Source: Blastocatellia bacterium (GTDB taxonomy: Bacteria; Acidobacteriota; Blastocatellia; Pyrinomonadales; Pyrinomonadaceae). Taken from it: 64,000 bases of DNA. Numbering within the stretch: position 1 is the first letter of the stretch; each line of letters opens with the position of its first letter. The stretch lies in assembly GCA_963834975.1 (NCBI GenBank), contig CAWIDZ010000004.1:127154-191153 (forward strand), read 5' to 3'. The notes beneath the pieces were generated by a model. The model saw only the letters and a list, made by a program, of their open reading frames with translations. It was not told the origin of the DNA and searched no databases. The position numbers and the translations under genes are program-made. This document shows, one piece after another, positions 5,428-28,314 of this stretch.

Positions 5428-5430
5428 GGA

Positions 5431-8445: not shown

Positions 8446-9060
8446 ATGTGTGGACGATATAAGATGACTGCCGAGCAGCAGGAACTGTTCGATCAGATGC
8501 CTTACCTCGAACAGGATGAATATTTTGATATTCACGGCTATAAAAAGCAGCCTGAGATATTTCCGGGAACCGAGATATTGGCGGTCAACAATAAACATAA
8601 AGCCGAGGCCGTCTGGTGGACAATTGAGGATTTTGACTACAAAGGCGTTTGGCGGCGGGCTATAAATGCAAAGTCGGAAAATGTCCGATTTGCCAATATG
8701 TTCAAGGAAGCTTTTTTCACCGACCGCATTCTTATCCCGGCCACAGGTATCTTCGAATGGCAGGATCAGCCCGACAAAACCAAGAAGAAATTTGAGATAT
8801 GGTTTGATGAGCCTGTTTTTGCACTCGGAGGCCTGGCCAGAGAATGTGAGATCAAAGGCGGATCTAAACGCTGCGGTGTGATCCTGACGACTCGTGCCAA
8901 TGAGGTTTTTGCCGAGATCCACAATTCAAAGCAGCGGCAGGCGGTCGTTGTTCGCCGGCCTGACTACGAAAAATGGCTCGACCCGTCCACCCCATTCCAG
9001 GAATTAGAAAGGATTATGGAACCGGTTGATAACGAAGAAACCCACTTTAAGAGCGTCTGA
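8446..9060 (+). CDS. SOS response-associated peptidase (SRAP/YedK-like abasic-site processing protein)
   Basis: It starts MCGRY, the catalytic Cys2 hallmark of SRAP proteins. At 204 aa its size is typical. Confidence 0.8.
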   Translation: MCGRYKMTAEQQELFDQMPYLEQDEYFDIHGYKKQPEIFPGTEILAVNNKHKAEAVWWTIEDFDYKGVWRRAINAKSENVRFANMFKEAFFTDRILIPATGIFEWQDQPDKTKKKFEIWFDEPVFALGGLARECEIKGGSKRCGVILTTRANEVFAEIHNSKQRQAVVVRRPDYEKWLDPSTPFQELERIMEPVDNEETHFKSV

Positions 9061-9857: not shown

Positions 9858-10562
9858 TTATTTGTCAACCGCGTAGGCGGCAGCGATAGTAGCGTAACAG
9901 GGACAAGTAAAAGCCTCGAGCCCCGGCCGGTCGATCATCGTAATAATGCCACGCGAATATGAGATCAGGCCGGCATTTTGCAGCTCGATCGCGGTCATTG
10001 TAACCGTTGATCGATTTGCGCCGAGCATCACGGCAATAAATTCCTGTGTGAGATTCATTACGTTTGATTGAGAGCGGTCATGACACATTAACAGCCAACG
10101 TGATAGGCGTAGCTCGGTCGTATGAAGCCTGTTGCAAAGAGCAGTCTGACTGATCTGAACGATCAGCTTACGGACAAATTTCAACAGCAGGTCGTGCAGG
10201 TCGCCACTGCGCGAAAATTCGGCCTGAAGATCTTCTGTCTTGATCCTCCAGGCACTATTAGCCATTTGTGTGATGTGCTCGTTGGTCGACCTGTCCGAAC
10301 CCAGAATAACGTCCAGGCCGGTTGCACCTTCGCTCCCGATCACTGACACCTCCGCACCCTGGCCCGCCTCAGTGTACGCAACGACCGAGATCATCGATCG
10401 CTCCGGAAAATAAACGTGAGAGATGGTTTCGTCGGCGGCGTAGAGTACCTTGCCCTGGCCGAGTTGAATGTGCTCAAGCATAGGACGGATCCTGTCCAAT
10501 GTTTCGGCCGAAAGCGCATTTAAAATTTGATTATGAGTCGCTGTCTGAGAATTGTCGTTCAT
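9858..10562 (-). CDS. Crp/Fnr family transcriptional regulator
   Basis: The layout is a cNMP-binding-like N-terminal part followed by a C-terminal HTH, LTQEFIAVMLGANRSTVTMTAIELQNAGLISYSRG. The probable start is the MNDNSQ Met at 10562 within the longer ORF. Confidence 0.75.
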   Translation of the reverse strand: MNDNSQTATHNQILNALSAETLDRIRPMLEHIQLGQGKVLYAADETISHVYFPERSMISVVAYTEAGQGAEVSVIGSEGATGLDVILGSDRSTNEHITQMANSAWRIKTEDLQAEFSRSGDLHDLLLKFVRKLIVQISQTALCNRLHTTELRLSRWLLMCHDRSQSNVMNLTQEFIAVMLGANRSTVTMTAIELQNAGLISYSRGIITMIDRPGLEAFTCPCYATIAAAYAVDK

Positions 10563-10793
10563 TTCCTGATCCTTTGTCCGGTGACGCGTTTGAACGCAGC
10601 AGACGGCAGAAGGAAATGATTGTTGGACAATTCCCGGTGTCGAGTGGTGAATTCGCAAAAAACAAAATTCGTTGTCAATAGTATCAGCCTATTAGGCATT
10701 ACCCTAGCAATATTTCACACGACCGAGTTCGTCCCTGGTATTCGGAAATCGGGACCGATCGGTTACGGTTACTTTGTTTATCTATAATTAAAG

Positions 10794-10858
10794 GAAAAAA
10801 AGCTGACAGGGCCGCGTATTTACGCCCTTTTAGCACTCCATCACAGCGGCCCTGTCAG
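10794..10858 (-). terminator. Terminator-like long hairpin after the repeat exoprotein gene
   Basis: A perfect 13-bp inverted repeat, CTGACAGGGCCGC (10803-10815) and GCGGCCCTGTCAG (10846-10858). On the minus strand it is followed by a T run (the A run at 10794-10801 on plus). Confidence 0.6.
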
Positions 10859-11018
10859 CAAATAATGGTCAGTTGAAAGAATAGTATATGTAGTGACAAC
10901 GGCTTGTCTGTTGTGCACGCAACACAGGGGCACTATTATGGCTATCTGTCCAAATAGAAAAAGCTGCCCGAAAACCTGTGTTTTCGAGCAGCCTGTTTTT
11001 GCCAATGCCGCTTTCGAT

Positions 11019-13683
11019 CTAGCGGGCTATTGCCGGAATGTCACCGGTGAGTCCAAAGTGGTATGCCTGGAATGTTCCGTCTGAACTTCGCAATACGTAC
11101 CAGTTGCCATCCGATGGACGAAAGACCGCAATGTCCGTTTTTCCGTCATCATCGTAATTACCTGCAACAGGGATGTCCCCGTTCAGGCCGAACGGCATCG
11201 CCTGGAATCCGCCGTCAGAGCTGCGGAGCGTGTACCACGTTCCCATCGAAGGCCGGTAAACCGTCTGGTCTGCTCTGCCGTCGCCGTCGAAGTCACCGCG
11301 GACCGGAATGTCACCGCTTAGACCAAAGTTCGTCGCGGCAAACTGTCCGTCAGAGCTTCGCAGCCAATACCAGTTGCCCTGGCTGGGACGGAACACGACG
11401 AGGTCGTCTTTGCCGTCACCATCCATATCAGCCGGGATCGGCAGGTCTTCGGCAATACCGAAATGGGTTGAGCGATTACCTGTGTTATTGCTCTGCTGGA
11501 TATACCAGACACCGTCTGATGGGCGATAGACCGCAATATCGATGCGTCCGTCACCGTCAAAGTCTCCGCGGACTGGAATATCCGTCGAAAGGCCCCACGA
11601 CGATTTGGTTACGCCTCCGTCCGAGCTGCGATTGATCTCCCAGGTACCCTGGCCGTTGTTGTTGCGGTAAACGGCTGCATCGGTACGTCCGTCGCCGTCA
11701 TAATCGGCTGACACGATCGTGTCCGAAGCCTGAACCGAATGGCAGGGCCGAAAAACCATTGGTATTTTGTACATACCATGTCCCGGTCGAAGGCCGGAAT
11801 ACTGAGAAATCATGACGGCCGTCGCCGTCAAAGTCGCTGTTTCTCGAATGATGTCTGAACGAGCCGCGGATCTCGCCTGCGGGGTTGTTCACGCTCATGA
11901 TCACTGCTGACCAGAGACCAGACCGAAGCTGCTGCACCGCCGCCCCTGATACATTAAAGGTGACGCTGGCAAAATGACCGTTCTGGCCGCCTACTACACC
12001 CAGATCGACGATCGTTGTTGATGTTCCGACCGTTGTTTCTATCCGTGCTCCCGTCTGATTGCTCGACAAATTGTGGAACTCGCCAAAGACGGTCGCTTGT
12101 GTCTCGTCGGCATTTAATGAAACCTTGATCTCACCGGTGGCAGATGTCGTAACCGGGGGCGTTACCTGGCTGCCGCTCAGATGCGTTTCAAAGGATCGGC
12201 CGAATGGGGTCGGGCTTGGTGTGCCGCCCGGTGTACCTGTCGGCGAAGGGCTCGGGCTGGCAAAGCTGCCGAAAGCTCCTGAAAGGATTGAAGCACCGCC
12301 GTTGTTAACAGAGATCGGTGTTCCGACGATGACGGTAGGTACCGTTTGTCCGTTGTCGCTTCTGAGACGGAGCCGGCCCTCGCCGCCGCTCTCGAGTATC
12401 ATCGAACCGGCGGTTGTGCCGTTTACGATAACGTTGAGCGATGTTCCGATCGGCAGGTTGACCTGACGGACGCGAACTTCGAGTTCTGTGCGGCTGCTAT
12501 GGATCTCATACTCTGCAAATCCGGTCGGCAGTACGCCATTCAATGTCGAACCTGTAAGTCCGGCGAAAAGATCGTTCCCATTAGGTGTACCACTTGGTGA
12601 CGGGCTAGGTGTGACCGATGGCGTTCCTGACGGGGTACCAGTCGGCGTCGCACTCGGAGTTCCCGATGGCGTACCGGTCGGTGATGGCGTCGGGCCGCCT
12701 GCTCCGAATATGCCGGAAACCAGAATGGTGCCGCCATTCCGAACCTCTACCGTCGAACCGTCATTAACAAACGGAACAGCCTGGCCGTCCTGGGTCCTTA
12801 ATTTAAGCTTGCCTTTTCCATTGATATCAACAATGGCCTGGCCAATAACGCTGCCATCGACAAACACGTCGAGGCTCGTTCCGGCTGCGAGATTAGTATC
12901 TTCCACCTCGACCTCTATTTCACGCTGTCCATTTGAATAAAGCTGCCAAACAGCCGCTCCGTGCGGGTTGATCGCACCGCTCGGCGCAACTAGATTTGCT
13001 GTACGTACCAATACCGGTGAGCCGGTCGGGGACGGGGAAGGTGTCGCGGTACCTGTTCCGCTGGGGGAAGGTGTCGCTGTACCCGTTCCCGATGGAGATG
13101 GAGTTGCCGTGCCGGTTCCTGATGGAGATGGGGTTGCCGTGCCGGTTCCTGAAGGTGAAGGAGTTGCCGTACCTGTGCCTGATGGCGATGGCGTCGCGGT
13201 ACCAGTACCTGACGGAGTGCCTGTAGGAGTCGGTCCGCCGCCGCCGAAAATGCCATTAACTAATACTGTGGGTCCAAATTGAACCTGAACGGTAGAGCCG
13301 TCATTAACGACCGGCACGGCCTGGCCGTCCTCGGTCTTAAGTTTTAATTTTGCTCTTTGGCGGTCATCAACGATCGCCTGGCCGATCAGATTTCCGTCAA
13401 CGAATACGTCAAGGCTCGTACCCATCGTAAAGTTGAGGTCCTCGGTTTCAACCTCTAATTCACGATTGCCGCTTTGATAGAGCTGCCATGCGGCGGCTCC
13501 GTGCGGATTGACGCTGCCGGTCGGTGACGTCAGATTTGCAGTACGGGTCAATATGACCGGCGTACCGTCGGCTTTTACATTATTTAGAAGAAATGGGACC
13601 GACACCCATGCTGTAAGCAATATGGCCGCAACGGTTAATTGCCAAACTATTTTGTTATACGATCTTGGATTTACTTTTTTCAT
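11019..13683 (-). pseudogene. Large secreted repeat protein (three roughly 105-aa modules, CHRD-like domain, FG-GAP/VCBS repeats) with one apparent frameshift near 11740
   Basis: The 661-aa ORF (11698-13683) has a signal peptide and three homologous modules (TANL..P.G..NPHGAA.WQLY...E.EVE.ED...GTSLDVFVDG). It also has a CHRD-like segment ending AGEIRGSF and begins FG-GAP repeats (DFDGDGRHDFSVFRPSTGTWY). The repeats continue in another frame in ORF 11019-11831 (ASDTIVSADYDGDGRTDAAVYR...). Confidence 0.75.
13029..13212 (-). repeat. Coding 30-bp tandem repeat (6 x SGTGTATPSP linker)
   Basis: The protein repeats GTGTATPSPS six times. The DNA units differ at synonymous positions. Confidence 0.85.
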
Positions 13684-14005
13684 TATTTTTTACCTGTCTG
13701 ATTTTTATTTACCCCATCTATGTGGGTGTCGTCATAAACACAGTGCAGTCAGGCGAGGGAAAAAGACATTAAGTGGACAGAAAAGGTGACGATCCCTAAA
13801 ACCGCATTCCGTTCAGTAAAGATCTGCTCTCAGAACAGCCTTTGGGAGCGTCTCAAATGTAATTGTGAATCCTGAGAAACTTTTTGGGAGCCTTAAACAA
13901 ATATGAGGCTCTTCAACAACACGGTTCAGCTCATTTACTTTCCGCGTTCAACCACCCGCTACCGCAGGTGGTTCTGACCTGGCGGGCCGCCGCCTCGACC
14001 CCTTT

Positions 14006-14183
14006 CTTCCGCGGCTTGCCGCATTGCAGTGCGGCGTGGCTGTGCCTCGACGTAAACTGTGCCTCCCTCTTCTTGTGGCTACGCCACCCTCTCGGCGAGG
14101 GAGGCATAGCCTCGGGAGTTTTGGGGGAGCGGCCACGGCGAGGCCGAGCCACGCCGCCGTGCGATGCGGCAGAGCCGCGAAGA
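14006..14183. repeat. GC-rich nested imperfect palindrome (MITE/REP-like element or structured RNA)
   Basis: The left arm cttccgcggcttgccgcattgcagtgcggcgtggctgtgcctcg (14006-14049) is the near reverse complement of the right arm cgaggccgagccacgccgccgtgcgatgcggcagagccgcgaag (14139-14183). An inner inverted repeat GCCTCCCTC / GAGGGAGGC lies at about 14060-14105. Confidence 0.7.
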
Positions 14184-14462
14184 TGCTGTAAACCTGAGAT
14201 GATCTGGCAAAATCGCGAAGACGCTGCAAAGCCGCCCAGCAGTCGGATACATGATCGAGGCAAAGATCGGAGACGCAGACGGCTATCAGATAGTCGGCAG
14301 ATCAATAAACCACTCATTCAAACACACCGGAGTACAACCCGGCGTGTCGGTCCGATACCGCGTCCGGTCACAAGCGAGGCGCGCAGGCGTCTCAGACTGG
14401 TCGAACGAGGCAGAGCAGTTTACAAAGGATGACGCTGGAATGAAGGCCGCTGAAAAGATAAA

Positions 14463-14488
14463 AGCTGCCCGGAATATTCCAGGCAGCT
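14463..14488 (-). terminator. Hairpin terminator downstream of the S8 protease gene (possibly bidirectional)
   Basis: AGCTGCC (14463-14469) pairs with GGCAGCT (14482-14488). T-rich tracts follow on both strands: TTTTATCTTTT on minus and CTTTTCC on plus. Confidence 0.5.
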
Positions 14489-14569
14489 CTTTTCCGGCTC
14501 GGGAACTCTCCTGAGATCGACGACTATTTCACGAAAGATCCCACTGAGCCAAAATCATTTTCACGACTA

Positions 14570-15925
14570 TTATTCGTTACATGCTGCAGGATTGGTCCCG
14601 CAAGCCGTATTATTGGTCAGAGCGCACAATGCATCGACGCGATTTGTTCTGATCTCTCCGCGAGTAGGATGCGTGCATCTCCATTCGATACCCGTTTCAG
14701 ACAATCGTTCTACGATCTGGTGGGGAACAAAGCCGGGGTTCGTCGCTTTTACCAGGGCAGCGATACCGGATGCGATCGGGGCAGCCATCGAGGTGCCTGA
14801 CCACATACCGTATCGGCCGCCGGGAATTGCGCTGACTATATTCTCACCGGGAGCGACCGCACGAATAAATCGATCACCACCGCTATTGCCAACGGACATG
14901 GTCGAAAAACTGGCTATATGTTCGTATCTCGTGCTTGCTCCAACCCCCAGTTGGGCGTCAATGCGATTACCGGCCGGATAAATAGGATCTCCGTTGCCGC
15001 CATTACCGGCACCCGAAATAACGACGACCTTGGATAAAAGTTCAGGAAATGTCTGAATCCCCGGCAGCGGAACACCATCACAATTATCGAGAAGGGCATG
15101 AAGCAGTTCAGGGTCAGAATCGTAGCCAAAGCTAATATTGATCACATTTGCTCCATGATTTGCGGCCCAAATAATAGCGGCCGTTACACGCCATAATTCG
15201 CCAACCCCGTCGCTATCGAGGATCCGGATAGGCATTATCTTCACATCAGGCGCCGTGAGCGCCACGATCCCTGCAACGTGTGTACCGTGGCCGTAGGCAG
15301 GATTCACTCTAATGATCCCTTCTTCACTCGGATCGGTATCACCCGAAACAAAGTCGTAGCCCGGAACGAGCCGCCCGGCAAATGCAGGATGGTTTAGATC
15401 GATGCCGGTATCCAGGACAGCAACAACGACTGGTTGGCCGTTGTCCACGCGAAGACCTTTATTTATTTGATGCGCTTCAGGAAGCCGCACTGTAAAGGGA
15501 AACCACTGCTTCATAAAGCCCTTTGCGCTGCCGCCGATCGCCCAAGATCGTCCGATGGCCCATGAGCGCCCGAGCGTCCAGGGAAGGCCTTCGTTCTCGA
15601 CCGATGAAAGTTCCCGATTGACCTCGACCCGTGAGATCCTGGCATCGCCCTGCATAGACGCCTGCAGTGCGCACGGCGTTTGAGTATTTGTCGGCAGCAG
15701 GGCCATCCGGTATGTCGGAGGTGAACCGACCTGGTCGATCGGTACAGCATTTAGCCCCCACATCGTTGCGACTGCGCCGAGATCTGATTGATTATTAAGG
15801 TTGACCAATATCTGCCCGGGAACAGCGTCGCAGGCGCTTCCCTGTCCAAAAGCAGAAGCGGCTATAAATAAAACCGTCGAAGCGGCGATAATTAGTTTCA
15901 GCCCTTTTTTATATAGATCTTTCAT
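14570..15925 (-). CDS. Secreted subtilisin-like serine protease (peptidase S8)
   Basis: The catalytic triad motifs are VAVLDTGIDLNHPAF (Asp), GHGTHVAGIVA (His) and SGTSMAAPIASG (Ser). There is an N-terminal signal peptide. The ATG is at 15925, with a TTG alternative at 15931. Confidence 0.9.
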   Translation of the reverse strand: MKDLYKKGLKLIIAASTVLFIAASAFGQGSACDAVPGQILVNLNNQSDLGAVATMWGLNAVPIDQVGSPPTYRMALLPTNTQTPCALQASMQGDARISRVEVNRELSSVENEGLPWTLGRSWAIGRSWAIGGSAKGFMKQWFPFTVRLPEAHQINKGLRVDNGQPVVVAVLDTGIDLNHPAFAGRLVPGYDFVSGDTDPSEEGIIRVNPAYGHGTHVAGIVALTAPDVKIMPIRILDSDGVGELWRVTAAIIWAANHGANVINISFGYDSDPELLHALLDNCDGVPLPGIQTFPELLSKVVVISGAGNGGNGDPIYPAGNRIDAQLGVGASTRYEHIASFSTMSVGNSGGDRFIRAVAPGENIVSAIPGGRYGMWSGTSMAAPIASGIAALVKATNPGFVPHQIVERLSETGIEWRCTHPTRGEIRTNRVDALCALTNNTACGTNPAACNE

Positions 15926-16041
15926 TTCCAATTAACTATTCTGACTATCAGTCCTCACCTTGACAGTGCGTTGACGCCCGTCTAAAAGACACCTTTTCAA
16001 AAAATATTTACACTTTCGATCAAAAACCCTTGTGACCGGCA

Positions 16042-18846
16042 TCACTTTCCGATCAATATGAACGGCGACCAATAATAGGGATGGCCGCCGCGGGTGATAA
16101 AACCGATCTGTGCTGCTCTTAAAGATGCCGAAATTGAACCGCCGCGTTGCAGGTTTTGGTACAGATCGCTCATCAGCCGGCCTGAGGCTTCGTCGTTAAC
16201 AGACCACAAACTCACTATCAGAGCACCTGCACCCGCGGTCAGGAACCCGCGGGCGAGGCCGAGTATCTCGTCACCAGCAAACACTTCACTCAGCCCCGTT
16301 TCACAGGCGCTCAGGGTGACGAGGCTAGCCTTGAGCTTTTGCGAACAAACATCACGCACCGTGATCCAGCCGTCTGAAAGATGCAGGCTCGAGAACATAG
16401 GGCTCTCAGGCCGAAAATGCCCGTGGCATGCAAGATGTATAATGTCGTACCTCGATGCGCTTGCCGTAAAAGCCGCAAAGCTGGCTTCGCCGCCGACAAG
16501 CGCCCGTGCCCGCGGCAGCGTGTTTTGGATCTGCCTGATCTCATCCTCAACAAACGGTATTCGCTCGTCCGCGTAACCCATCAGAAGTGAGCTTTTGGCC
16601 GTTTCATCGGTTCTTTCGTTCAGGACCGACCAGACCGCGGCACTCGGCGCAAATGTCGTTTCAAAACTTTCGACAACATATTTGTGATGGCTGCGCAGAG
16701 CGTGAAAGGGAACGTAATTCAAAATTCCCGCCGGCACAATAACGAGCCGGTCGCCTTTGATCAGGCTGTCAATAGGTTTGAGGAGTTGTCCGTACAGACG
16801 CTCAAGACAGGCGTCGGTGCGTGATCTCATATCGGCCATGAATCGCTCAGGGATGCTGGTGCCGTATCTGAGGGCACCGAACTGAAAGTGAAGTTCCTCG
16901 AGTGAGTGCCGCACATCGTCGGTTCGGGCGAGATCGGCGACGAAACTGACCTTTGACCCGTTTATTACAAATGCTGAGAATAGCCCGTCAAACTCGACAA
17001 ACTCGATCAAAGTCGATGACTTGCCGAGCTGCTTTGACAATCGGCTTACACTAAAATCGACCTGGCTCTTTTCTTCCGAGCCTGATCTCGCCGGCCGCAG
17101 GCTTTCAACCTGTCTGATGGTCGATGTCAGGTTTGATTCGGCCGTCTTTATGTCCGACCTGAGTTTTTCCGCATCCGCGTCTGTTGAGATATCGAGCCGT
17201 CGGTAATACTGGTTCAACTCCGTCCTGTACTCGTCCGCCTGCGCCTGCAGCTTTCGTGTTGATGCGGCATCGGCGGAGCTGGATGACATCGAATCGAGCA
17301 GAGCCCTCGAGCGGCCGCTTTCTAATGCTTCAAAAGCCGCAGCGTACTTTTTCCGGCTCAGATACAGCCGGGCGAGGTTATGGAACGGCTCAAGCCGCGA
17401 CGCAAAGAATGCCATGCTGAACTCTTCGGCGCCGAGCGGGGACCGCATAGCCTCGACCTGCTTGATCGCCGAGGTGAACAGGCGTTTTGCCTTGCCATAT
17501 TCGCCGCGTTCGGCGGCCAGTTTGCCGCCCGCATTGTAGGCTTGCCGGACGGCGTCGGGATGCTGCAGCGACCGGCCCAGTTTGGCAGCGTCGCTGAATA
17601 TTTTGTCGGCCTTGTCGGGGTGGTCCGACTGAACAAAGTACTCGCCCCTCAGCAGTTCCAGGCTCACCCGATGACGCGGATTACCGCTATCCTTAACAGC
17701 CGCCGCGGCGTCACGGATGATCGATCCGGCGGCATCGGGGTCGCCACGTTCGATCTCGTTCCTCGCCCGCTCAAGCAGCACAGACACTTCGCCGGTAAGG
17801 TTCTGTTCCCGTTCGAACAACTGCTGGGCCCTTTTCAATTGCCGGCCCGCAACGGTTCGCTTTCCAATAGCAGCGGCCGTCTTACCATAATTAAGTCTGG
17901 CCCTCGCCTCCTCGGCAGTTAATTTCAGTTGGCGAAAAATTGGTGTGACACGTTCATATATCCCAAACGCATCTTCAGCCAGGTTTAGCTCAGAATAGAT
18001 GTCAGCGATCTCGAGGTCGGCTATTGCTGACTGATGCGGCATCCTGAGCTCGTCGTACATCTGCCTCGACGATTCGAGGTGACGCAGCGCATCGGCGTAA
18101 CGCCCGCGGAGCAGGTCGAGGTTGCCGAGGCTAGCCTCGATCTCAGCCTCGGTTACGCGCATTTTTCCGGAGCGCGCTCCCATTAATGCCATCACATAAT
18201 ACCGGTCGGCTTTTGAGAAATCGTTCAGTTCAGCATAGGTGTTGGCAAGGCCGTTTTCAGCCATGACCTGCCACGTCCGCTCGCCGGACATCCGGAATCG
18301 GCGAAGAGCCGTCAAGCCATATTTCTCGGCCTCACGATGCAGCGCCCGGCGCGAGACAATATTGCTGAGATTCATCTCGATCTTTCCGGCAGCGACCTGG
18401 TCCCCGCTGCGTACAAAGACCTTTAGGGCTTTGCGGCCTGCACCGACCGCCTCGTCATAGCGGCCGAGCATCGCCAGGGCAATGAGTTTTGCGACCTGAG
18501 TCTGTGCCGAATCGAGAGGGCTGTCAATCGTGTCATAGATCTCCGTCGCGTCGTCGAGTGAGGCGACGGCGGCCTCAAATTTTCCTTTGGTTATTAGGGC
18601 GATGCCTTTGACCCAGCTTGCCGCCGCGCGGATCCGCTCGTCTGTGCCGGCCCTCGCAAGCCAACGCATCGCCAGGTCCGCCCGCTGCGCCCTCACAGGC
18701 TCGACGGCCCACGCCGCGTAACAGGCCTTGCGGATAGCATCGGCCAAACGTGCGTCCGCGAGGCGCGGATATTGGGCGAGCAGAGACCGTCGCTCGGCAT
18801 CACTGCGGGCATCGATCAAGTTTTTGGCGAGATCAGCTCTGCGCAT
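16042..18846 (-). CDS. TPR-repeat CHAT-domain protein (caspase-like protease fold)
   Basis: 934 aa. The N-terminal two thirds are TPR-like helical repeats. The C-terminal CHAT domain has DIIHLACHGHF (His) and LVTLSACETG (Cys). Confidence 0.85.
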   Translation of the reverse strand: MRRADLAKNLIDARSDAERRSLLAQYPRLADARLADAIRKACYAAWAVEPVRAQRADLAMRWLARAGTDERIRAAASWVKGIALITKGKFEAAVASLDDATEIYDTIDSPLDSAQTQVAKLIALAMLGRYDEAVGAGRKALKVFVRSGDQVAAGKIEMNLSNIVSRRALHREAEKYGLTALRRFRMSGERTWQVMAENGLANTYAELNDFSKADRYYVMALMGARSGKMRVTEAEIEASLGNLDLLRGRYADALRHLESSRQMYDELRMPHQSAIADLEIADIYSELNLAEDAFGIYERVTPIFRQLKLTAEEARARLNYGKTAAAIGKRTVAGRQLKRAQQLFEREQNLTGEVSVLLERARNEIERGDPDAAGSIIRDAAAAVKDSGNPRHRVSLELLRGEYFVQSDHPDKADKIFSDAAKLGRSLQHPDAVRQAYNAGGKLAAERGEYGKAKRLFTSAIKQVEAMRSPLGAEEFSMAFFASRLEPFHNLARLYLSRKKYAAAFEALESGRSRALLDSMSSSSADAASTRKLQAQADEYRTELNQYYRRLDISTDADAEKLRSDIKTAESNLTSTIRQVESLRPARSGSEEKSQVDFSVSRLSKQLGKSSTLIEFVEFDGLFSAFVINGSKVSFVADLARTDDVRHSLEELHFQFGALRYGTSIPERFMADMRSRTDACLERLYGQLLKPIDSLIKGDRLVIVPAGILNYVPFHALRSHHKYVVESFETTFAPSAAVWSVLNERTDETAKSSLLMGYADERIPFVEDEIRQIQNTLPRARALVGGEASFAAFTASASRYDIIHLACHGHFRPESPMFSSLHLSDGWITVRDVCSQKLKASLVTLSACETGLSEVFAGDEILGLARGFLTAGAGALIVSLWSVNDEASGRLMSDLYQNLQRGGSISASLRAAQIGFITRGGHPYYWSPFILIGK

Positions 18847-18925
18847 AAACTGTCATTATACAATGAGGAAAAGGCGAAGGTTCCTAGGTCCTTCGCCTTT
18901 TGAGGAATGGGGTATGGCAGGAAAG

Positions 18926-19417
18926 TTATTCGAGAATGAGTTTTTCGATAAAGATCTCGAGGCCGTTACCGCGGACGGTAAGACCATATTGGCCCGCCGA
19001 AACGCCTTTTAGGTTGAATCCGCTGGCATCGGCTATTTTGGTTTTGAACGTTATTTCATCGTTAGAGATCTCGACCTCGCCGCTCTTAAATCCGTCACCG
19101 AGGATCTGGCCGCGTATGTCGAAACCTTTTTTCCCTGGTGCGATCCTCAGATCGACCGCATTGTCACCGGCGTCAAAAAGCATCTGCCGGGCCCCGGCAC
19201 CTGATGCAGACCGTTCGCCAAACGCAGCCCGATTCGGAGCCAGGTCCATCTGCAACGCCGCTAAAACGCGGGTCACGACAGACGCCTTAGGTTCGGCAAC
19301 TCTAGAACGAAACAGATCCCTCGCGTATTTCAGCGAGTTTGCCGGTGCGTCAGCCGATCGGTCTGAAAGCATCCGCCCAATGATGTGTTGTAATTTTTGT
19401 TCTTCTGAATTATTCAT
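18926..19417 (-). CDS. Hypothetical cytosolic protein encoded between the ECF sigma and CHAT genes
   Basis: ORF with ATG at 19417 (MNNSEEQ...) or GTG at 19441. It has no transmembrane segment and no zinc anti-sigma motif. The C-terminal part is beta-rich. Confidence 0.6.
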   Translation of the reverse strand: MNNSEEQKLQHIIGRMLSDRSADAPANSLKYARDLFRSRVAEPKASVVTRVLAALQMDLAPNRAAFGERSASGAGARQMLFDAGDNAVDLRIAPGKKGFDIRGQILGDGFKSGEVEISNDEITFKTKIADASGFNLKGVSAGQYGLTVRGNGLEIFIEKLILE

Positions 19418-19481
19418 GACTTGCCGAGTTCCTTGCTCCACTTGAACAGTGCGGCCGCGATCTCCAAAAAGACACTCCTCA

Positions 19482-20087
19482 TCATTTTGTCAGCACTTTT
19501 CCCAGTTTTTTCAAACAGCGTGAACGCAGCGGGCTGATACTGGTTTCACCGACTCCTATTGCCGCACCGACCTCGGCGTAGCTTGCGGCCGGGTCGCACA
19601 GATATATCATCGACAATATTTTTTGGCACCTTTCTTCGAGCTCTGCGAGCGCGTTGCGGATCAGGTGCTGTTCTTCGAGTTCGATCAGGGCGTCGTCCGC
19701 GAGCAGTGTCTTATCGGGAATGGCGGCCATTTCCGCTTCCATTTCCTCAGGCGTGTTTGGTGAATGGAACCCTTTTGAGCCGCGAATTATCCCCCACGTT
19801 TTAAATTTCGCGGTCGTGACCATCCATGAACGGATCTTTTCGGGCTGCTGGATCTCATCGATCTTTTCGACCAGGGTGAGGAACACCTCCTGAAAAACAT
19901 CGGCCGCCTGCTCATCAGACAGACCAGCCCGGCGGGGTATCGTGATGATCAGGCGCTGATAACGGTCGACCAATGCGTCCCACGCGCTCTGGTCGCCTCG
20001 CCGGCACCTTTTAACAAGGTCGGCGTCGATCCTGGATATTTTTAGCGATTCGAGGCTGGCATTACCCTTTACCTCAGCCGTGTCCAT
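19482..20087 (-). CDS. ECF-type RNA polymerase sigma-70 family factor
   Basis: Region 2 reads WDALVDRYQRLIITIPRRAGLSDEQAADVFQEVFLTLV. Region 4 HTH reads SYAEVGAAIGVGETSISPLRSRCLKKL. The ATG is at 20087, with an upstream TTG at 20150 possible. Confidence 0.85.
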   Translation of the reverse strand: MDTAEVKGNASLESLKISRIDADLVKRCRRGDQSAWDALVDRYQRLIITIPRRAGLSDEQAADVFQEVFLTLVEKIDEIQQPEKIRSWMVTTAKFKTWGIIRGSKGFHSPNTPEEMEAEMAAIPDKTLLADDALIELEEQHLIRNALAELEERCQKILSMIYLCDPAASYAEVGAAIGVGETSISPLRSRCLKKLGKVLTK

Positions 20088-20251
20088 ATAGTTTAGATTC
20101 TTAATTAGGAGTTCATATTTAGCAAGAACCCGACCCAGCGTATGCCGCAAACGCTAACGCAACCTTTGGCGGGTATGATAACATTTCGTTTTCGGATATA
20201 TCACGGAATTGAATGCCCGCGGTTAATGCGAAACGCGGAATTTACGCATGT

Positions 20252-21553
20252 ATGGATAAATTTTTGGTACGCGGCGGCAACCCGCTGAGGGGAAAAATAG
20301 AGATCGGCGGAGCTAAAAACTCGGCCCTGCCCTGCCTTGCCGCCACCCTGCTAACAGAAGAGACCGTCATACTTCACAACGTACCGTATGTGAAAGACCT
20401 GATCACGCAGCGGCGTCTGCTCGAGGACCTCGGGGCAACGGTTTTGACGCCTGAACTGCGAACGCACAAGGTAAACGCCCGAGGCGTGCAGATCTTTGAG
20501 GCGCCATACGAACTTGTTAAGACCATGCGGGCGAGCGTTCTGGCTCTCGGCCCGTTGCTCGCGAGATTTGGCCAGGCCAAGGTGAGTCTTCCGGGCGGTT
20601 GTGCTATCGGTACGCGGCCGATCGATCTGCACCTTAAAGCGTTTGAGCAGCTCGGCGCTGTAGTGTCGCTCGAATCAGGCGATGTCGTCGCCCGGGCGCC
20701 CAAGGGGCGTCTTGTCGGAAATGAGATCGCGTTTGAAAAGGTCACGGTAACCGGAACAGAGAACGTGATGATGGCCGCCGCACTCGCCTCGGGTAAGACA
20801 ACAATAAAGAACGCCGCTCAGGAACCTGAGATCGAGGACCTTGCCGAGCTGTTAAATAAGATGGGTGCGAGGATCAAGGGTGCCGGAACGCCCGTTATAG
20901 AGATCGAGGGAGTCGAAGCTCTCGGCGGAGCCGAACACACGATCATCCCCGACCGCATCGAGACCGGGACCTTTATCGTTGCCGCTGCGATAACCCACGG
21001 CGAGATCGAGATCAAGAGCTGCCGCCCCGAACACATCACCTCGGTAATTGAACATCTGCGTCAGGCGGGAGTTGAGATCGAGGAGCTAAATCAGAGCAGC
21101 CTTCTCGTGCGCTGCGGCCCCGGCGGCCTCAAGGCAAAAGATGTCACGACGGAACCGCATCCTGATTTTCCGACCGATATGCAGGCCCAGTATATGGCCC
21201 TGATGACGCAGGCCGAGGGCACATCAACGATTACGGAAACCATTTTTGAGAACCGGTTCATGCACGCATCTGAGCTGATACGTATGGGCGCCGATATCCA
21301 TATCTCAGGAAATACCGCCGTCGTTAACGGCCACAAACAACTGATGGGTGCCCCCATCATCGCATCAGACCTGCGGGCCTCAGCGTCGCTCGTCCTCGCC
21401 GCCCTTTGTGCCGAGGGTGAGACCATGATCGACCGCGTTTATCACATCGACCGCGGTTACGAGACCATCGTCCGCAAATTCCGCTCGCTCGGTGCCGATA
21501 TCGAACGCATCAGCGAAAACATTGCATCAGCGGCGAGTGAGCAACCCGCGTAA
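20252..21553 (+). CDS. murA: UDP-N-acetylglucosamine 1-carboxyvinyltransferase
   Basis: MDKFLVRGGNPLRGKIEIGGAKNSALP... followed by LPGGCAIGTRPIDLH (active-site Cys loop). Typical MurA length. Confidence 0.95.
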   Translation: MDKFLVRGGNPLRGKIEIGGAKNSALPCLAATLLTEETVILHNVPYVKDLITQRRLLEDLGATVLTPELRTHKVNARGVQIFEAPYELVKTMRASVLALGPLLARFGQAKVSLPGGCAIGTRPIDLHLKAFEQLGAVVSLESGDVVARAPKGRLVGNEIAFEKVTVTGTENVMMAAALASGKTTIKNAAQEPEIEDLAELLNKMGARIKGAGTPVIEIEGVEALGGAEHTIIPDRIETGTFIVAAAITHGEIEIKSCRPEHITSVIEHLRQAGVEIEELNQSSLLVRCGPGGLKAKDVTTEPHPDFPTDMQAQYMALMTQAEGTSTITETIFENRFMHASELIRMGADIHISGNTAVVNGHKQLMGAPIIASDLRASASLVLAALCAEGETMIDRVYHIDRGYETIVRKFRSLGADIERISENIASAASEQPA

Positions 21554-22970: not shown

Positions 22971-25900
22971 CTAATACCTGAACGCCGTCTGCGTCGGCCT
23001 GTCACCGTCAGCACCGAATTGATACGCGAAGAACGAACCGTCCGAGCTGTTCTGTCGGTACCATGTGCCATCCGACGGCCGAAATACCGAAACGTCTGCC
23101 TTGCCGTCGCCGTCAAAATCGCCCGGTGCCGGGATGTCGTCCGAGAGGCCGAATATGTTGTAGACGACCTCGCCGTTCGAACTGTTAATTATGTACCAAA
23201 TACCTGTCGACGGGACGATAGACTGCGAGGTCGGTTTTGCCGTCCCCGTCGTAATCAGCCGGGACAATAACATCAGTGCCAAACCCGAAACCTCTCGCCG
23301 GAAACAGCGATCCGTCAGAGCTGTTGAACTGGTACCAGTCCCCGATCGAAGGCCGGAAGATCGCAATGTCAGCCTTGCCGTCACCGTCGAAGTCGCCAAT
23401 TGTCGGCTTATCCTCGCTCGCTCCAAACTGCATGCGCAAAGAATGACCCATCGCTACTGTTCTGCCGGTACCACGTACCGGTCGACGGCCTGAACACCGA
23501 AATATCCGCTTTACCATCGCCATCATAATCCGCCGGCGTCGGCAGGTCCTCTGCCAAGCCAAAAACATAGTAAGCGACCGTGCCGTCACTGCTTTGGAAG
23601 ACATACCAGATACCGGTTTCCAAACGGTAAACAGCGATGTCCGTCTTGCCGTCGCCATCATAATCAGCCGGTGCGATCTTGTCAGTGCCAAAACCAAACA
23701 ACGTTCCATATAGTCCCGCCGTCGACCGTTGTAGATACCACGCTCCGTCCACCGGCCTGAATATCGAGATGTCCGACTTGCTGTCGCCATCGTAGTCAAA
23801 CACCGTCTGGCCGGATGGAGTTGGCATACCGGTCGGTGTCGCTGTCGGCGTACTGGTCGCGGTAGCCGTCGGTGTATTTCTAGGCGTATTCGTCGGTGTA
23901 GAGGTTGGTGTAGAAGTCGGTGTCGAGGTTGGAGTATTCGTCGGGGTCGCGGTAGGCGTCGACGTTCTAGAGCTGCTGGCTCTGCAAGGGTCCAGTCCCC
24001 ATTAAATCGGCTAATTCCGGTTACGTGAAATGTGTTTGCTATTGGGTCGACGATGCCTCCAGGCTGCGTAAAGCCGGCTCGATACATTTGAATGACAAAG
24101 GTCGATTCGTTCGCCGTGACTGGGATGTCGATCGGGTCGAGATAATGAAACATAAGGTCTGCCGACAAATTGTCCGATTGGTATAGTTCCCAATAGCGTG
24201 AGAGAGCCTTTGACGGATCAAATATATTTGGCTGTGTTGCCTGAACTGCTCTTGCAAAAAAACCTCCGGAAATGCTCCTGAAGTAACATCTACGACTATT
24301 GGCGAATAGCCATTTTCTGTCCCCACATCGAAAACGTACGGCCCCTCGGCCTCAAAATAGCGAAGCAAAAATCCATTTATATAGCCATTCGTCCTGGTAA
24401 CGGTTCCGCCAACCGTAAACCACCAAGTGGGGTCCGTTACTGTAACAATACCGTTCATGAGTTCAAGATTACCTGCTACAAATGGGCGACCATTCAGCAA
24501 GATGACCCCCATCGGATTGTCAATGACAACCGTAGATGCTCCGCCGGCCCCCTGAACGCCGCTGCCACTGATCGTTTGCGTAATGGGACCGTCCAGGCGA
24601 ATGGTTCCAGAGAGAAAACTCAAATGGGTGCCCGATAATATATCAATATTCCCCCTTATACTGCCTGACAAGTACAGATCCAGCTTCCCCGCGATCAGTG
24701 TAAGATCATCGATAAAAAAGGAGTTGGAGCCAAAAGACTTGAAATATTCCATTAGTATATTTCACCTCAAAATTTGAATAGGTACGGCCCGAGAGGGATA
24801 GTGTCACATTTCCTCGGAGACTAAAAAGGCTGCCGTGCTCGAACAGAACAACCGACCCGGGTTCTGCCGCTCCGAAAGGGTTATCCACAGCGAACGTAAA
24901 ACCGTCGTTATACCCCATCCGACCATAGTTATTGATTATCGAAGGCAAAGGTCCCTGGGGTAAAAAATAATCGAGTTAGATATCCGTTGATATAGCCATT
25001 TGTCCTGGTCACGGTTCCACCAACACTCATATGGGCCAAATTTTCGGTGGCAACCGCACCGTTTATGAGGTCGAGATCCCATGCCGGAAATGATCGGCTT
25101 AGTATAACGCCATTGGGGTTATTTATGACCAACTTAGACCCACCCCCTGCCCCAGGTGTCCCGACCCCCTCAACGGTTTGTGGTGTAGTCCGTTAAGAAG
25201 CATGGTTCCTGAAAGAAGGTTCAAACGAGTTCCCGATTTGATCGTAATATTGCCCCTTATCGAAAGACCGGGCTCACCGGAAAGATAAAGATCTAGATTT
25301 CCAGCATTTATCGTAAGATCGTCCATGAACATTGGACCGGAAGCAAAAATTCTATATAGCCCGTCGAATAATTCATTTCAAAATTTGCATAAGTCCGACC
25401 CGAAAATGATGGAACCACTTCTCCCTGAAGACTGAATAGGCTACCTGATTTGAAAGTAACCACCGAATCCGGCTCCACAGCACCAAACGGATCACCGCCA
25501 GAAACGCAGATATAGGTCGAACCCCCGGCAAAAATAACAGAATTTAGATTGGTCGTTCCAAACGGGTTTCCGATGAAGCCAGCTCCAGCGGTAAACACGG
25601 CCCCTTCGTTAAATGTGACCGCACCCGGCGTCAACGGCCGTGAGCCGATGAGCAGCCGCACCTAACGACGAAAAAGTCATTGATCCGCTTATGCCGGCGG
25701 TTGAACCCGCTCGCAAGGTTGACAACAAATTCGCTAGAGCCGCCGAAATTAAGTGCCGAGTTTCGATCGACAACCAGATCGTCGCCGTCGCCGCCCGCTA
25801 TAGTCAGAACAATTGCGGCCGCCGATTGCAGATTTACCGTCGAATTTCCTGAGACGATCAATTGACCGATCGTTTGGGTCGGAACATTGGTAACCGTAAT

Positions 25901-26421: not shown

Positions 26422-28314
26422 TCAATACCTGAACGCGGCCTGAGTCGGCTTGTCGCCGTTCGTACCGAATTGAAACGCAGCAAATGACCCGTCAGAACTG
26501 TTCATCCGGTACCAGTTGCCGTCTGATGGGCGGAAGACTGAGAGGTCGGCTTTGCCGTCTCCGTCGAAGTCGCCGGGTGCCGGGATGTCGTCTGATAGGC
26601 CGAAGGGATAGGCGGTGTAGACGGCTCCGTTGCTGTTCTTGATGTACCAAAATCCGTTCGACGGGCGAAAGACCGCGAGATCGGTTTTGCCGTCTCCGTC
26701 GTAATCAGCCGGGACCGTCACATCGGTTCCAAAACCGAAAATCTCCCCAAACAGTGACCCATCCGAACTGTTGACCTGATACCAGGCCCCGGTCGATGGA
26801 CGGAAAACCGCAATGTCAGCTTTGCCGTCACCGTCGAAGTCACCCAAGGTAGGCTTGTCTTCGCTCGCCCCAAACTGCATGCCAAAGAACGACCCGTCAC
26901 TGCTGTTCTGCCGGTACCACGTCCCGGTCGACGGCCTGAACACTGAAATATCCGCCTTACCGTCACCGTCATAATCGCCAGGCGTCGGCAGGTCCTCGGC
27001 CAGGCCGAAAACATAGTAAGCGACCGTGCCGTCACTGCTTTGAAATACATACCAGATCCCGGTTTCCGGCCGGTAAACGGCGATGTCCGTCTTACCGTCC
27101 CCATCATAATCCGCCGGTGCGATCTTGTCGGTGCCAAAACCAAACAACGTTCCATATAGTCCCGACGTCGACCGTTGTAGATACCACGCTCCGTCCACCG
27201 GCCTGAAGATCGAGATATCTGTTTTGCCGTCTCCGTCAAAATCAAAACCAGGCCGGTTGACGCTAGTGAGGACAATGTCGTTACCGTCACCGCCCTGATA
27301 TGTGATGCGAAAGGCTAGACTTAGCGGCGCAGCGATCGTCGAACCTTCGGGAGCATTTAGGAACGTTCCGTTGATCTCATCCGTGCCGTCTTTTCGCAAA
27401 ATAATAAACGAATCACCGATTGCCGGACGAAAGAAAGCCAGGGGGAGAGGCTCAAGGCGTGCATTACCAAGTGAAACAATTCCGGTCACATTTAATTGGT
27501 CGTGTCCGTTCACTCCTGGGGTCGTTCCGCCGATCTTACAGGCATAATTTCCGTTTGCCCCGAAAGTCAGTCCATTATTAATATTGAGAATTCCGGTTTG
27601 GTACGGTAAGGTCCCCGCGCTAATAACGCCGGATGTAACGGTAGTTGAGCCAACCGTCCCCGAACCACCAAAACCACTCAGACCTGTTGTTCCACCAATT
27701 GTTCCACCTGAAACTGAGACCGTGCTGCCGGGAATATTCGCGTCCACAACAAGTGAGCCATCATCCAACCTGATAGCACCCGTGTATCCGCCGGTTGAAG
27801 AAATTCGTGATGCACCCGACCCAGTCTTCGTCAGACTGCCTGTTCCGAAAATGAGGCTTATCCCAAAACTACCACCACCATCCAAAGTAAGGACTGTAGT
27901 TTCTGTAAATCCATTGCCGATAAACAATGCGAAGATGGATGCAGTTGACCCTTGTGCTGCATAAAAATTCTGGGAATTTGTAATTTGTATTGTGATGATC
28001 AGGAATTGGGTTCCACCATTGACTTGTAAACCGTTTGTTAACCGCAAGGTGTTACCACTGACTGAATAGTTTCCGCCCTCAATGGTGAGCGAGTTAAAAG
28101 AGAAAAAGGTAGTTGAAAAGTCATTATTGGTCATAAACCGGGCTGACGCCGCGGGAAAAACCAAGTCGTCATCATAAACAGGACTGACATCACTGACCCA
28201 ATTTGCAGCAGTTGTCCAGTTGCCGTCGGCACCTCCGCCGTCCCAGATCTTAACCGCAGAAAAAGAATTGACTGCTGAAAATATGAAGAGTGCTGTTAGG
28301 AAACATATTTTCAT
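26422..28314 (-). CDS. Secreted autotransporter-associated beta-strand repeat / FG-GAP (VCBS) repeat protein
   Basis: Signal peptide MKICFLTALFIFSAVNSFSA. A PATR-like start VKIWDGGGADGNWTTAANW. Eight FG-GAP-like units follow (DFDGDGKTDISIFRPVDGAWY...). The 630-aa ORF is intact. Confidence 0.85.
   Translation of the reverse strand: MKICFLTALFIFSAVNSFSAVKIWDGGGADGNWTTAANWVSDVSPVYDDDLVFPAASARFMTNNDFSTTFFSFNSLTIEGGNYSVSGNTLRLTNGLQVNGGTQFLIITIQITNSQNFYAAQGSTASIFALFIGNGFTETTVLTLDGGGSFGISLIFGTGSLTKTGSGASRISSTGGYTGAIRLDDGSLVVDANIPGSTVSVSGGTIGGTTGLSGFGGSGTVGSTTVTSGVISAGTLPYQTGILNINNGLTFGANGNYACKIGGTTPGVNGHDQLNVTGIVSLGNARLEPLPLAFFRPAIGDSFIILRKDGTDEINGTFLNAPEGSTIAAPLSLAFRITYQGGDGNDIVLTSVNRPGFDFDGDGKTDISIFRPVDGAWYLQRSTSGLYGTLFGFGTDKIAPADYDGDGKTDIAVYRPETGIWYVFQSSDGTVAYYVFGLAEDLPTPGDYDGDGKADISVFRPSTGTWYRQNSSDGSFFGMQFGASEDKPTLGDFDGDGKADIAVFRPSTGAWYQVNSSDGSLFGEIFGFGTDVTVPADYDGDGKTDLAVFRPSNGFWYIKNSNGAVYTAYPFGLSDDIPAPGDFDGDGKADLSVFRPSDGNWYRMNSSDGSFAAFQFGTNGDKPTQAAFRY

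Follow-up and report, generated by a model that had tools for sequence, protein, structure and literature searches.

Can a caspase-like protease switch on a sigma factor without the help of CRISPR? This question is raised by a gene cluster in a 64,000-nucleotide stretch of a Blastocatellia genome (GenBank assembly GCA_963834975.1, contig CAWIDZ010000004.1, positions 127,154 to 191,153 of the forward strand), the whole of which we refer to as the window. The cluster encodes a sigma factor of the extracytoplasmic function (ECF) type, a small soluble protein, a protein combining a TPR array with a CHAT protease domain, and a secreted subtilase. An original prediction, made from the letters of the window, took these four genes for an operon and proposed that the CHAT protease cleaves the small protein, acting as a soluble anti-sigma factor, to release the sigma factor by the logic of Csx29 and Csx30 in type III-E CRISPR loci. 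Having analyzed the cluster and its relatives, we find the evidence about evenly poised for and against a cytoplasmic, CRISPR-independent, protease-gated sigma/anti-sigma switch in the core genome of Blastocatellia.

Gene content of the cluster

Four minus-strand open reading frames (ORFs) lie at 14570-20150 with gaps of 64, 79 and 116 nt, exactly as first described. The genes are indeed linked, although the conserved cluster is not limited to four of them and includes a fifth gene at 11019-13683. The five genes are as follows.

19482-20087, minus strand: sigma-70 family factor of the ECF type (group IV), 201 amino acids (aa); TIGR02937, Pfam Sigma70_r2 and r4
18926-19417, minus strand: small soluble protein, 163 aa, truncated homologue of anti-sigma factors of the zinc anti-sigma (ZAS) family; homologues, AlphaFold2 (AF2) model, hhalign
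16042-18846, minus strand: predicted cytoplasmic TPR-CHAT protease (clan CD, caspase-like), 934 aa; Pfam CHAT, TPR_12
14570-15931, minus strand, likely start ATG at 15925: predicted secreted S8 (subtilisin-family) serine protease; Pfam Peptidase_S8
11019-13683, minus strand: fifth conserved gene, predicted exported CHRD/FG-GAP repeat protein; Pfam CHRD, FG-GAP

The length of the sigma factor is counted from Met22 of its ORF, with the ATG at 20087. We class it as an ECF (group IV) factor from its predicted domains, sigma2 and sigma4 only, and from its scores above the family-model cutoffs (TIGR02937, 76.3 bits versus 42.9; Pfam Sigma70_r2, 32.5 versus 24; r4, 28.4 versus 24.1). Its closest solved relative is SigW (5wuq_A, E 2.6e-7). 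The sigma factor, the small protein and the CHAT protein are without hydrophobic segments, and the S8 and CHRD proteins have signal-like N-termini.

The CHAT protein was recognized by Pfam CHAT (PF12770, 209 bits, E 1e-61) and TPR_12 (E 1e-20). Its catalytic dyad, described earlier as intact, consists of His808 (codon at 16425) and Cys848 (codon at 16305), and the dyad motifs are kept in orthologues (His in 47/47, Cys in 46/47). Judged by this His-Cys dyad, the protein is predicted to be a catalytically intact clan CD cysteine peptidase. It has no signal peptide and no transmembrane segment, and its closest solved relatives are the CHAT domains of Csx29 (E ~5e-7). The S8 protein (PF00082, 136 bits, E 2e-39) carries the triad motifs LDTGI (173), HGTHV (215) and GTSMA (379), which are kept in essentially all orthologues. 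An Asp-His-Ser triad in a predicted S8 fold makes it a subtilase by sequence, and a hydrophobic N-terminal signal segment and a propeptide-like N-terminus bear out the expectation that it is secreted.

We scanned 37 window ORFs against Pfam, including every ORF of at least 300 aa. No Cas family or domain was found among these ORFs, in which the functions seen were housekeeping and cell envelope, and no CRISPR array was found in the window, in agreement with the earlier statement that Cas genes are absent. At the cluster, PADLOC gave no specific defence-system match and returned generic subtilase and TPR hits only.

Conservation across Blastocatellia

The original prediction had set conservation of the gene order in other genomes as its own test. 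Scanning one genome per species yielded 59 loci, all from Blastocatellia, Pyrinomonadales or 'Chloracidobacterium' metagenome-assembled genomes; with locus L001 there were 60 loci, and with the window 61 sequences. The order sigma factor, small protein, TPR-CHAT and S8 was present in every sufficiently long contig among the 59 species-representative genomes and L001, and a CHRD/FG-GAP gene followed S8 in most long loci. This arrangement is far beyond chance, and on this count the original prediction stands. Sigma orthologues were 59-80% identical to the window protein in all 59 loci covering the position (L051 starts downstream), and identities to the window proteins were 36-63% for the small protein, 35-58% for CHAT and 36-79% for S8. 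The small protein had 508 homologues, almost all of 157-163 aa. In approximately 20 loci murA lies upstream of the cluster in divergent orientation. Because of this location and the vertical pattern of inheritance, the data indicate a core-genome module rather than a mobile island.

One contig, labelled Actinomycetota (L039, CAWGWR010000010.1), was considered as a bridge to the actinobacterial group ECF54 and rejected because it looks chimeric. Its GC content falls from 0.68 over the leading 4 kb to ~0.5 at the cluster, and CHAT and S8 are present there in broken form. Probably the contig is a chimera or was mis-binned, and it provides no evidence for the cluster in Actinobacteria.

Origin of the small protein

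The 163-aa protein contains no Cys and no hydrophobic segment, consistent with the earlier remark that it lacks any transmembrane or zinc anti-sigma motif, and the window sequence itself had no Pfam or NCBIfam match. An AF2 model built from a 30-sequence alignment placed helices at residues 3-17 and 28-37 and a confident, CarboxypepD_reg-like beta-sandwich at residues 77-163. Pfam CarboxypepD_reg itself gave weak, sub-threshold matches to 16/30 members of the small family (best E 3.5e-4). Residues 33-73 were modelled at low confidence and hold an invariant loop, DLAPNRAAFGERS (residues 58-70), that contains AFGERS, or AFG-x-R-S in general form.

We searched 1.8 billion representative proteins with a profile (hidden Markov model) for relatives of the small protein and found a second population of 195-205-aa proteins that match the whole query and have approximately 40 extra N-terminal residues. 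The extensions carry HxxxCxxC, and H7, H32, C36 and C39 are nearly invariant in 35 long forms, corresponding to the ZAS signature H-x24-H-x3-C-x2-C. The anti-sigma factor ChrR has the same spacing. Pfam zf-HC2 scored above its gathering cutoff in 2/10 long forms (P0270 and P0294), and several long forms are named 'anti-sigma factor RsiW' by JGI. Compared with the PDB, the long-form profile matched the RsiW chain of the SigW-RsiW complex (5wuq_C, E 5.8e-4) in an alignment that reaches into a helix retained by the window protein. The match to the ZAS domain of DdvA was weak (E 0.05). An AF2 model of a long form (pLDDT 85) showed three helices in a bundle, then a fourth helix, a loop that is exposed, and a beta-sandwich.

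The short and long families aligned over 158 columns with an hhalign probability of 100% (E 3.4e-41). Residue 5 of the window protein pairs with long-form residue 42, directly after CxxC; the window protein starts just after this position and does not contain the ZAS zinc motif (H/C-x23-26-H-x3-C-x2-C). Because the short forms match the long forms this strongly, and the long forms match RsiW and zf-HC2, we assign the small protein to the ZAS family as a putative soluble anti-sigma derivative that has lost helices I-II and the zinc site, an assignment that is transitive. The unconventional soluble anti-sigma factor of the original prediction fits this apparent descent from soluble zinc-type factors whose zinc-binding helices were lost. 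That this protein acts as anti-sigma factor to the neighbouring sigma factor is, in our view, quite probable. Two-helix anti-sigma domains are known from NepR and CnrY, which set a precedent for such a minimal inhibitor.

In a sister clade of three loci on large contigs (L065-L067), the gene for an ECF sigma factor is accompanied by genes for a ZAS/beta-sandwich protein of 201-203 aa, a TPR-CHAT protein of 941-946 aa and a protein of 707-821 aa that BLAST identifies as an S8 homologue of the window protease (36-41% identity, E 1e-73 to 1e-86). Several other long-form representatives came from contigs of ~1 kb, which show little of their surroundings. Identities to the window were 48-51% for the sigma factor, 34-36% for the ~200-aa protein and 38-39% for CHAT. 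Because this clade has zinc-motif forms in the same four-gene order, the cassette appears to predate the loss of the zinc motif. In both deep clades CHAT sits between the anti-sigma and S8 genes though the flanking genes differ. Of the linear elements in this protein family, the AFG-x-R-S loop is the best conserved in both clades, and it falls in an exposed, low-confidence segment of both the short-form and long-form AF2 models. Its Arg (Arg69 in the window protein) is invariant across the two clades.

Probable promoters and transcription units

A bipartite motif, TGTCTTT-N16-CACTGT (equivalently TGTCTTTTT-N13-GCACTGT, or GTCTTT-N16-CACTGT), has 3 exact sites in the 64-kb window, where 0.04 would be expected, and no further sites. 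These and the other transcription signals of the cluster are as follows.

20097-20125, minus strand: TTGCTA, 17 nt, AAGAAT, putative housekeeping-type promoter of the sigma gene; sequence
19446-19474, minus strand: motif copy 1, putative sigma-dependent promoter in the spacer between the sigma and small genes, 29 nt upstream of the small-gene ATG
18870-18901, minus strand: terminator-like 12-bp GC-rich hairpin flanked by A/U runs, between the small gene and CHAT
18855-18862, minus strand: TATAAT box within TTGTATAAT, putative housekeeping/leaderless-type promoter of the CHAT gene, 8 nt upstream of its ATG
15963-15991, minus strand: motif copy 2, ~32 nt upstream of the S8 start
14460-14491, minus strand: intrinsic-terminator-like 14-bp hairpin and T-run, after the S8 stop
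13740-13768, minus strand: motif copy 3, 57 nt upstream of the CHRD ATG

The motif is shared by related loci. It was present at the copy-1 position in 51/61 sequences and upstream of S8 in 45/48 loci containing that spacer. Although the search pattern, applied to the 60 loci and the window, permitted 13-19 nt between the halves, all 142 sites had identical spacing. The sites precede the small, S8 and CHRD genes, with none before sigma or CHAT, and lie on the coding strand; the exceptions are two in L039, upstream of sigma on the opposite strand. The sequence between the halves was not conserved, and the distance to start codons was 20-60 nt. In the sister clade the -35-like half reads GTATTT rather than GTCTTT, with the -10-like half, the spacing and the positions unchanged; as the sigma factors are only ~50% identical, this difference may reflect co-variation of sigma factor and promoter.

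Because the spacing is fixed, the spacer unconserved, the strand specific and the starts 20-60 nt away, we read the motif as an alternative-sigma promoter, and we hold with good confidence that the sigma factor next to it recognizes it. The motif upstream of S8 makes the subtilase a most likely regulon member, one of two roles that the original prediction had offered for it. The possibility that the motif belongs to a known RNA element was rejected, since a search of 10500-21000 with Rfam gave no RNA family.

The sigma and CHAT genes are preceded by signals of another kind. The -10 box of the sigma gene ends 9 nt before the ATG, which is a leaderless-type arrangement, and TTGCnA-N17-CA(G/A/T)(A/T)AT occurs at the same offset before sigma in 25 related loci. 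When an ECF-type autoregulatory promoter was sought upstream of sigma, only the housekeeping-like TTGCnA-N17-CAGAAT was seen. A -10-like box precedes CHAT in 42/55 loci, 6-14 nt from the ATG in all but one, and is an exact TATAAT in 30. In the window, sigma and CHAT each have a -10-like box only 8-9 nt from the ATG; for the three genes driven by the motif, the leaders are 21-60 nt long.

The hairpin at 18870-18901 was overlooked by a generic promoter/terminator scanner because of its 9-nt loop and was confirmed by folding (-20.8 kcal/mol, z -3.6). Among related spacers between the small gene and CHAT, 54/55 fold at -10 kcal/mol or lower. Because separate promoters and terminators lie between the genes, the cluster appears to comprise several transcription units, and the single operon first proposed does not hold. 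Sigma and CHAT look constitutively expressed, and the anti-sigma, S8 and CHRD genes look sigma-dependent. If so, the sigma factor would not be autoregulated and its inhibitor would be, which amounts to negative feedback.

The spacer between S8 and CHRD (13769-14459 region) is ~890 nt long in the window versus a 333-nt median in relatives, and its conserved part is only the 90 nt adjoining the CHRD promoter. It contains an imperfect palindrome of ~180 nt at 14005-14183 and a plus-strand ORF at 13884-14432 with no family match. The CHRD/FG-GAP gene itself is split by a frameshift near 11729-11731. Its 915-aa homologue from L001 aligns in two frames, -2 for residues 1-679 and -3 for residues 680-915, and the frameshift is either an assembly indel or a pseudogene. 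Another FG-GAP gene at 22995-23827 matches the same homologue in three frames, which suggests further indels and that the window possibly derives from an error-prone long-read assembly. Upstream of the cluster, FG-GAP proteins encoded at 26422-28314 and 23185-24168 resemble the C-terminal part of the CHRD/FG-GAP protein (46% identical across ~290 aa), and neither gene has the bipartite motif.

Proposed mechanism

We propose that an ECF-type sigma factor is produced from a housekeeping-type promoter and would be sequestered by the 163-aa ZAS descendant, which appears to retain the last two anti-sigma helices, the AFGERS loop with Arg69, and the C-terminal beta-sandwich. The TPR-CHAT protein, made constitutively from its own promoter, would act as a sensor-protease whose TPR array reads a cytoplasmic cue. 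Once activated, CHAT would cut the anti-sigma factor, most likely in the loop between the sigma-binding helices and the beta-sandwich, and the sigma factor would be freed. Free sigma would then transcribe the anti-sigma gene, providing negative feedback, together with the S8 and CHRD/FG-GAP genes from the three TGTCTTT-N16-CACTGT promoters. We observed the genes and their conservation, the kinship of the small protein with ZAS anti-sigma factors, the motif with its positions and the retained catalytic residues; the binding of sigma and anti-sigma, the recognition of the motif by sigma, the cleavage and its site, the input signal and the biological role we infer.

Why might release require a protease? 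The usual redox route of soluble ZAS proteins is unavailable because the truncated partner has no Cys, and given that this route is unavailable, a dedicated protease would be the most economical release mechanism. Whether CHAT cleaves its anti-sigma partner we regard as close to a coin toss. The AFG-x-R-S loop is plausibly the candidate cleavage site. In its most specific form the proposal would be a free-standing, CRISPR-independent, caspase-like pathway, in which a constitutive TPR-CHAT cuts a two-helix ZAS-derived anti-sigma factor at an invariant loop Arg, freeing a non-autoregulated sigma factor for its own inhibitor, a subtilase and a surface protein, as a core circuit of Blastocatellia. 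We advance this form tentatively, as somewhat short of an even prospect.

Several observations weigh against the proposed switch. The direct profile comparison of the short form with RsiW was not significant (hhalign probability 1.5%), the small protein is without anti-sigma helices I-II and the zinc site, and its N-terminal 73 residues are modelled at low confidence. Foldseek with the long form gave only a weak match to ChrR (E 0.034); across both AF2 models it otherwise returned generic beta-sandwiches, and none of the matches was decisive. The motif is unlike the common ECF consensus (AAC ... CGT), and another sigma factor could read it instead, or a regulator could bind it. In sister locus L066, CHAT begins only 21 nt after the anti-sigma gene, and wiring with a constitutive CHAT is not universal. 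As the substrate specificity of CHAT proteases is unpredictable, Arg69 as the P1 residue is a guess. Finally, binding of the small protein to sigma and its cleavage by CHAT are the inferred steps on which the switch depends.

Alternative explanations

We considered whether the small protein might be an anti-sigma factor that TPR-CHAT relieves without cutting, by partner switching or as an anti-anti-sigma factor, with the sandwich or loop docked on its TPR array, or else whether CHAT cuts a different regulatory substrate. TPR arrays are protein-binding modules, and the conserved loop might be a peptide that they bind instead of one that is cut. Retention of the catalytic His in 47/47 and Cys in 46/47 orthologues over deep divergence nevertheless argues that catalysis matters, and cleavage is the established or proposed mode of action of the known TPR-CHAT/sigma systems (PMC10028731, PMC11506125). 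We consider this explanation unlikely.

The protease could instead degrade or process the sigma factor itself, with the small protein as adaptor or output. Review articles suggest this for ECF54, which is placed under 'proteolysis' given its carboxypeptidase, subtilase and CHAT neighbours (PMC8999054) and for which Casas-Pastor et al. 2021 list no anti-sigma factor (PMC7826278). In our cluster, the middle gene is homologous to ZAS anti-sigma factors, and a small gene under the cluster-specific promoter is the classic layout of sigma/anti-sigma feedback. The sigma factor is a minimal sigma2-sigma4 protein of 201 aa with no obvious extension to remove. Direct proteolysis of sigma is therefore improbable relative to the release of sigma from an anti-sigma factor.

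Similarly little credence attaches to the idea that CHAT is a conserved neighbour unrelated to sigma control, engaged for instance in maturation or quality control of the S8 and CHRD precursors or in general proteostasis, while another cue releases the anti-sigma factor. Co-localisation alone is no proof of a regulatory link, and a hairpin sets CHAT, with a promoter to itself, apart from the small gene. Yet the S8 and CHRD proteins are exported and CHAT has no signal peptide, the truncated anti-sigma factor is without Cys or a zinc site for sensing of its own, and in the two deep clades alike CHAT has kept its place, with the anti-sigma gene on one side and S8 on the other, despite differing flanks.

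A role in anti-phage or abortive-infection defence, as a Craspase-like module that lost or never had CRISPR and whose TPR array senses a phage protein, would be compatible with the proposed mechanism and is shared by both characterised TPR-CHAT/sigma systems (type III-E and DdvA; PMC10028731, PMC11506125), but it has a slim chance here given the core-genome location with murA as neighbour in ~20 loci, the 59 species-representative genomes with sigma identities of 59-80%, the lack of a specific PADLOC family match at the cluster and of Cas genes or CRISPR arrays in the window, and outputs that are secreted or surface proteins.

Other features of the window

A second sigma-70-family gene at 40673-41635 encodes a 320-aa protein with r2 and r4_2 domains, which exceeds the usual length of an ECF sigma factor. 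The regions 3967-6711 and 8446-9060 hold a gene for an ATP-dependent DNA ligase, directly followed by one with a weak match to AEP-TOTE (primase-polymerase, conflict-system), and, close by, a SRAP peptidase gene. They may represent either LigD-like repair or a conflict system. Near the start of the window, at 1956-2092, an AT-rich unit of 20 or 40 nt stands in 3-5 tandem copies.

Significance

Regulated proteolysis of anti-sigma factors is a central theme of bacterial signalling. To our knowledge, site-1 proteases are serine or metallo enzymes that sit in the membrane or the periplasm, and the sole CHAT example shown is RNA-guided and CRISPR-bound. What is new here is a free-standing cytoplasmic TPR-CHAT protein paired with a zinc-less ZAS derivative in a proposed protease-gated sigma/anti-sigma switch, an interpretation that is partly supported. 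The system is compact, with five genes that could be rebuilt in E. coli and three near-identical promoters that could serve as a read-out. It offers a defined candidate substrate, a small protein with an invariant loop, and zinc-bearing and zinc-less versions of the anti-sigma factor could act as natural controls. Studying it could reveal how a cytoplasmic cue switches on a bacterial caspase-like protease.

Blastocatellia are abundant soil bacteria with almost no genetics, and the cluster would be a first regulatory circuit for the class. If the 'carboxypeptidase' neighbour of ECF54 proves homologous to the small protein, this would explain both the missing ECF54 anti-sigma factor and the neighbourhood of carboxypeptidase, subtilase and CHAT domains. 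Should the cleavage step fail, an ordinary sigma/anti-sigma pair with an unusual neighbour would remain.

Comparison with known systems

Among classical pairs, the cluster is nearest to SigW-RsiW, in that SigW is the best solved relative of the sigma factor, RsiW is that of the long-form partners, and the ZAS signature spacing is shared. RsiW is a membrane protein released through PrsW/RasP intramembrane proteolysis, and ChrR and RsrA respond to oxidants via the zinc site. In contrast to the inhibitors of SigW-RsiW, ChrR-SigE and RsrA-SigR, the window protein lacks a membrane helix, Cys and helices I-II, in place of which it carries a transthyretin-like beta-sandwich. ECF270 and ECF271 are listed with soluble ZAS partners of unknown mechanism.

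Actinobacterial ECF54 has neighbours with carboxypeptidase, subtilase and CHAT domains, and proteolytic regulation without an anti-sigma factor was proposed for it (PMC8999054). The same three types of neighbour domain occur in our cluster, where the carboxypeptidase-regulatory-like part rests on weak CarboxypepD_reg matches and the AF2 sandwich. The window cluster differs in belonging to Acidobacteriota and in having a ZAS-derived middle protein where ECF54 has no anti-sigma factor, and the likeness is one of gene context only. Huang et al. are said to have given the original description of ECF54 in 2015.

Release of an ECF-like sigma factor by a soluble, signal-activated protease that cleaves a soluble anti-sigma factor is described for CalpL-CalpT-CalpS, the SAVED-Lon protease, anti-sigma and sigma proteins of a type III CRISPR system (bioRxiv 10.1101/2024.05.08.593097). 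The proposed switch resembles it in this outline, although the CalpL protease is Lon rather than CHAT, is activated by cyclic oligoadenylate and is CRISPR-associated. In the literature, we found TPR-CHAT together with anti-sigma cleavage in CRISPR-associated cases and in DdvA only. The idea advanced in the original prediction was novel only in part, having been partly anticipated by the ECF54 neighbourhood (PMC8999054) and by the fusion of ZAS, transmembrane and TPR-CHAT segments in DdvA (PMC11506125).

In DdvA-DdvS of Myxococcus xanthus, a single anti-sigma protein unites a ZAS domain with a transmembrane helix and, in the periplasm, a TPR-CHAT region; (self-)cleavage by CHAT is proposed as the release step, RseP is required, and the outputs are CBASS (a cyclic-oligonucleotide-based antiphage system) and CRISPR (PMC11506125). 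Common to both systems are an ECF sigma factor, an anti-sigma domain of the ZAS type and a TPR-CHAT module that carries a His-Cys dyad. They differ in that the window encodes separate, soluble anti-sigma and TPR-CHAT proteins with no transmembrane segment in either, that the zinc motif was lost in the window clade, and that the outputs are a subtilase and an exoprotein. To judge from sequence, the present system would be a split, soluble counterpart of DdvA.

Craspase (type III-E, Cas7-11/Csx29) comes closest in mechanism. Its TPR-CHAT protease Csx29 cuts Csx30, which inhibits the ECF-like CASP-sigma, to set this sigma factor free (Strecker et al. 2022, PMC10028731). Here too a cytoplasmic TPR-CHAT gene lies beside genes for an ECF-type sigma factor and a soluble inhibitor of two linker-joined domains, and the putative target promoters of the sigma factor are within its own locus. 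The parts themselves appear not to be shared: the CHAT protein falls outside the Csx29 family and the small protein shows no sign of kinship with Csx30, the pair whose logic the original prediction had borrowed. The window cluster is without Cas7-11, a CRISPR array and Csx31, and its CHAT protein scores 66 bits against a Csx29 cutoff of 300 (NF041237), over the CHAT domain only. Its inhibitor appears ZAS-derived with a beta-sandwich; no Csx30 was among the Foldseek matches listed, and there was no significant PDB match. Target RNA cannot be the activator of the window system, whose locus belongs to the core genome rather than a defence island. By analogy, Craspase would be the closest mechanistic counterpart of a system that is proposed to work like it without being a member. 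If the proposal is correct, the module could be of the ancestral building-block type behind both the DdvA fusion and the sigma arm of Craspase.

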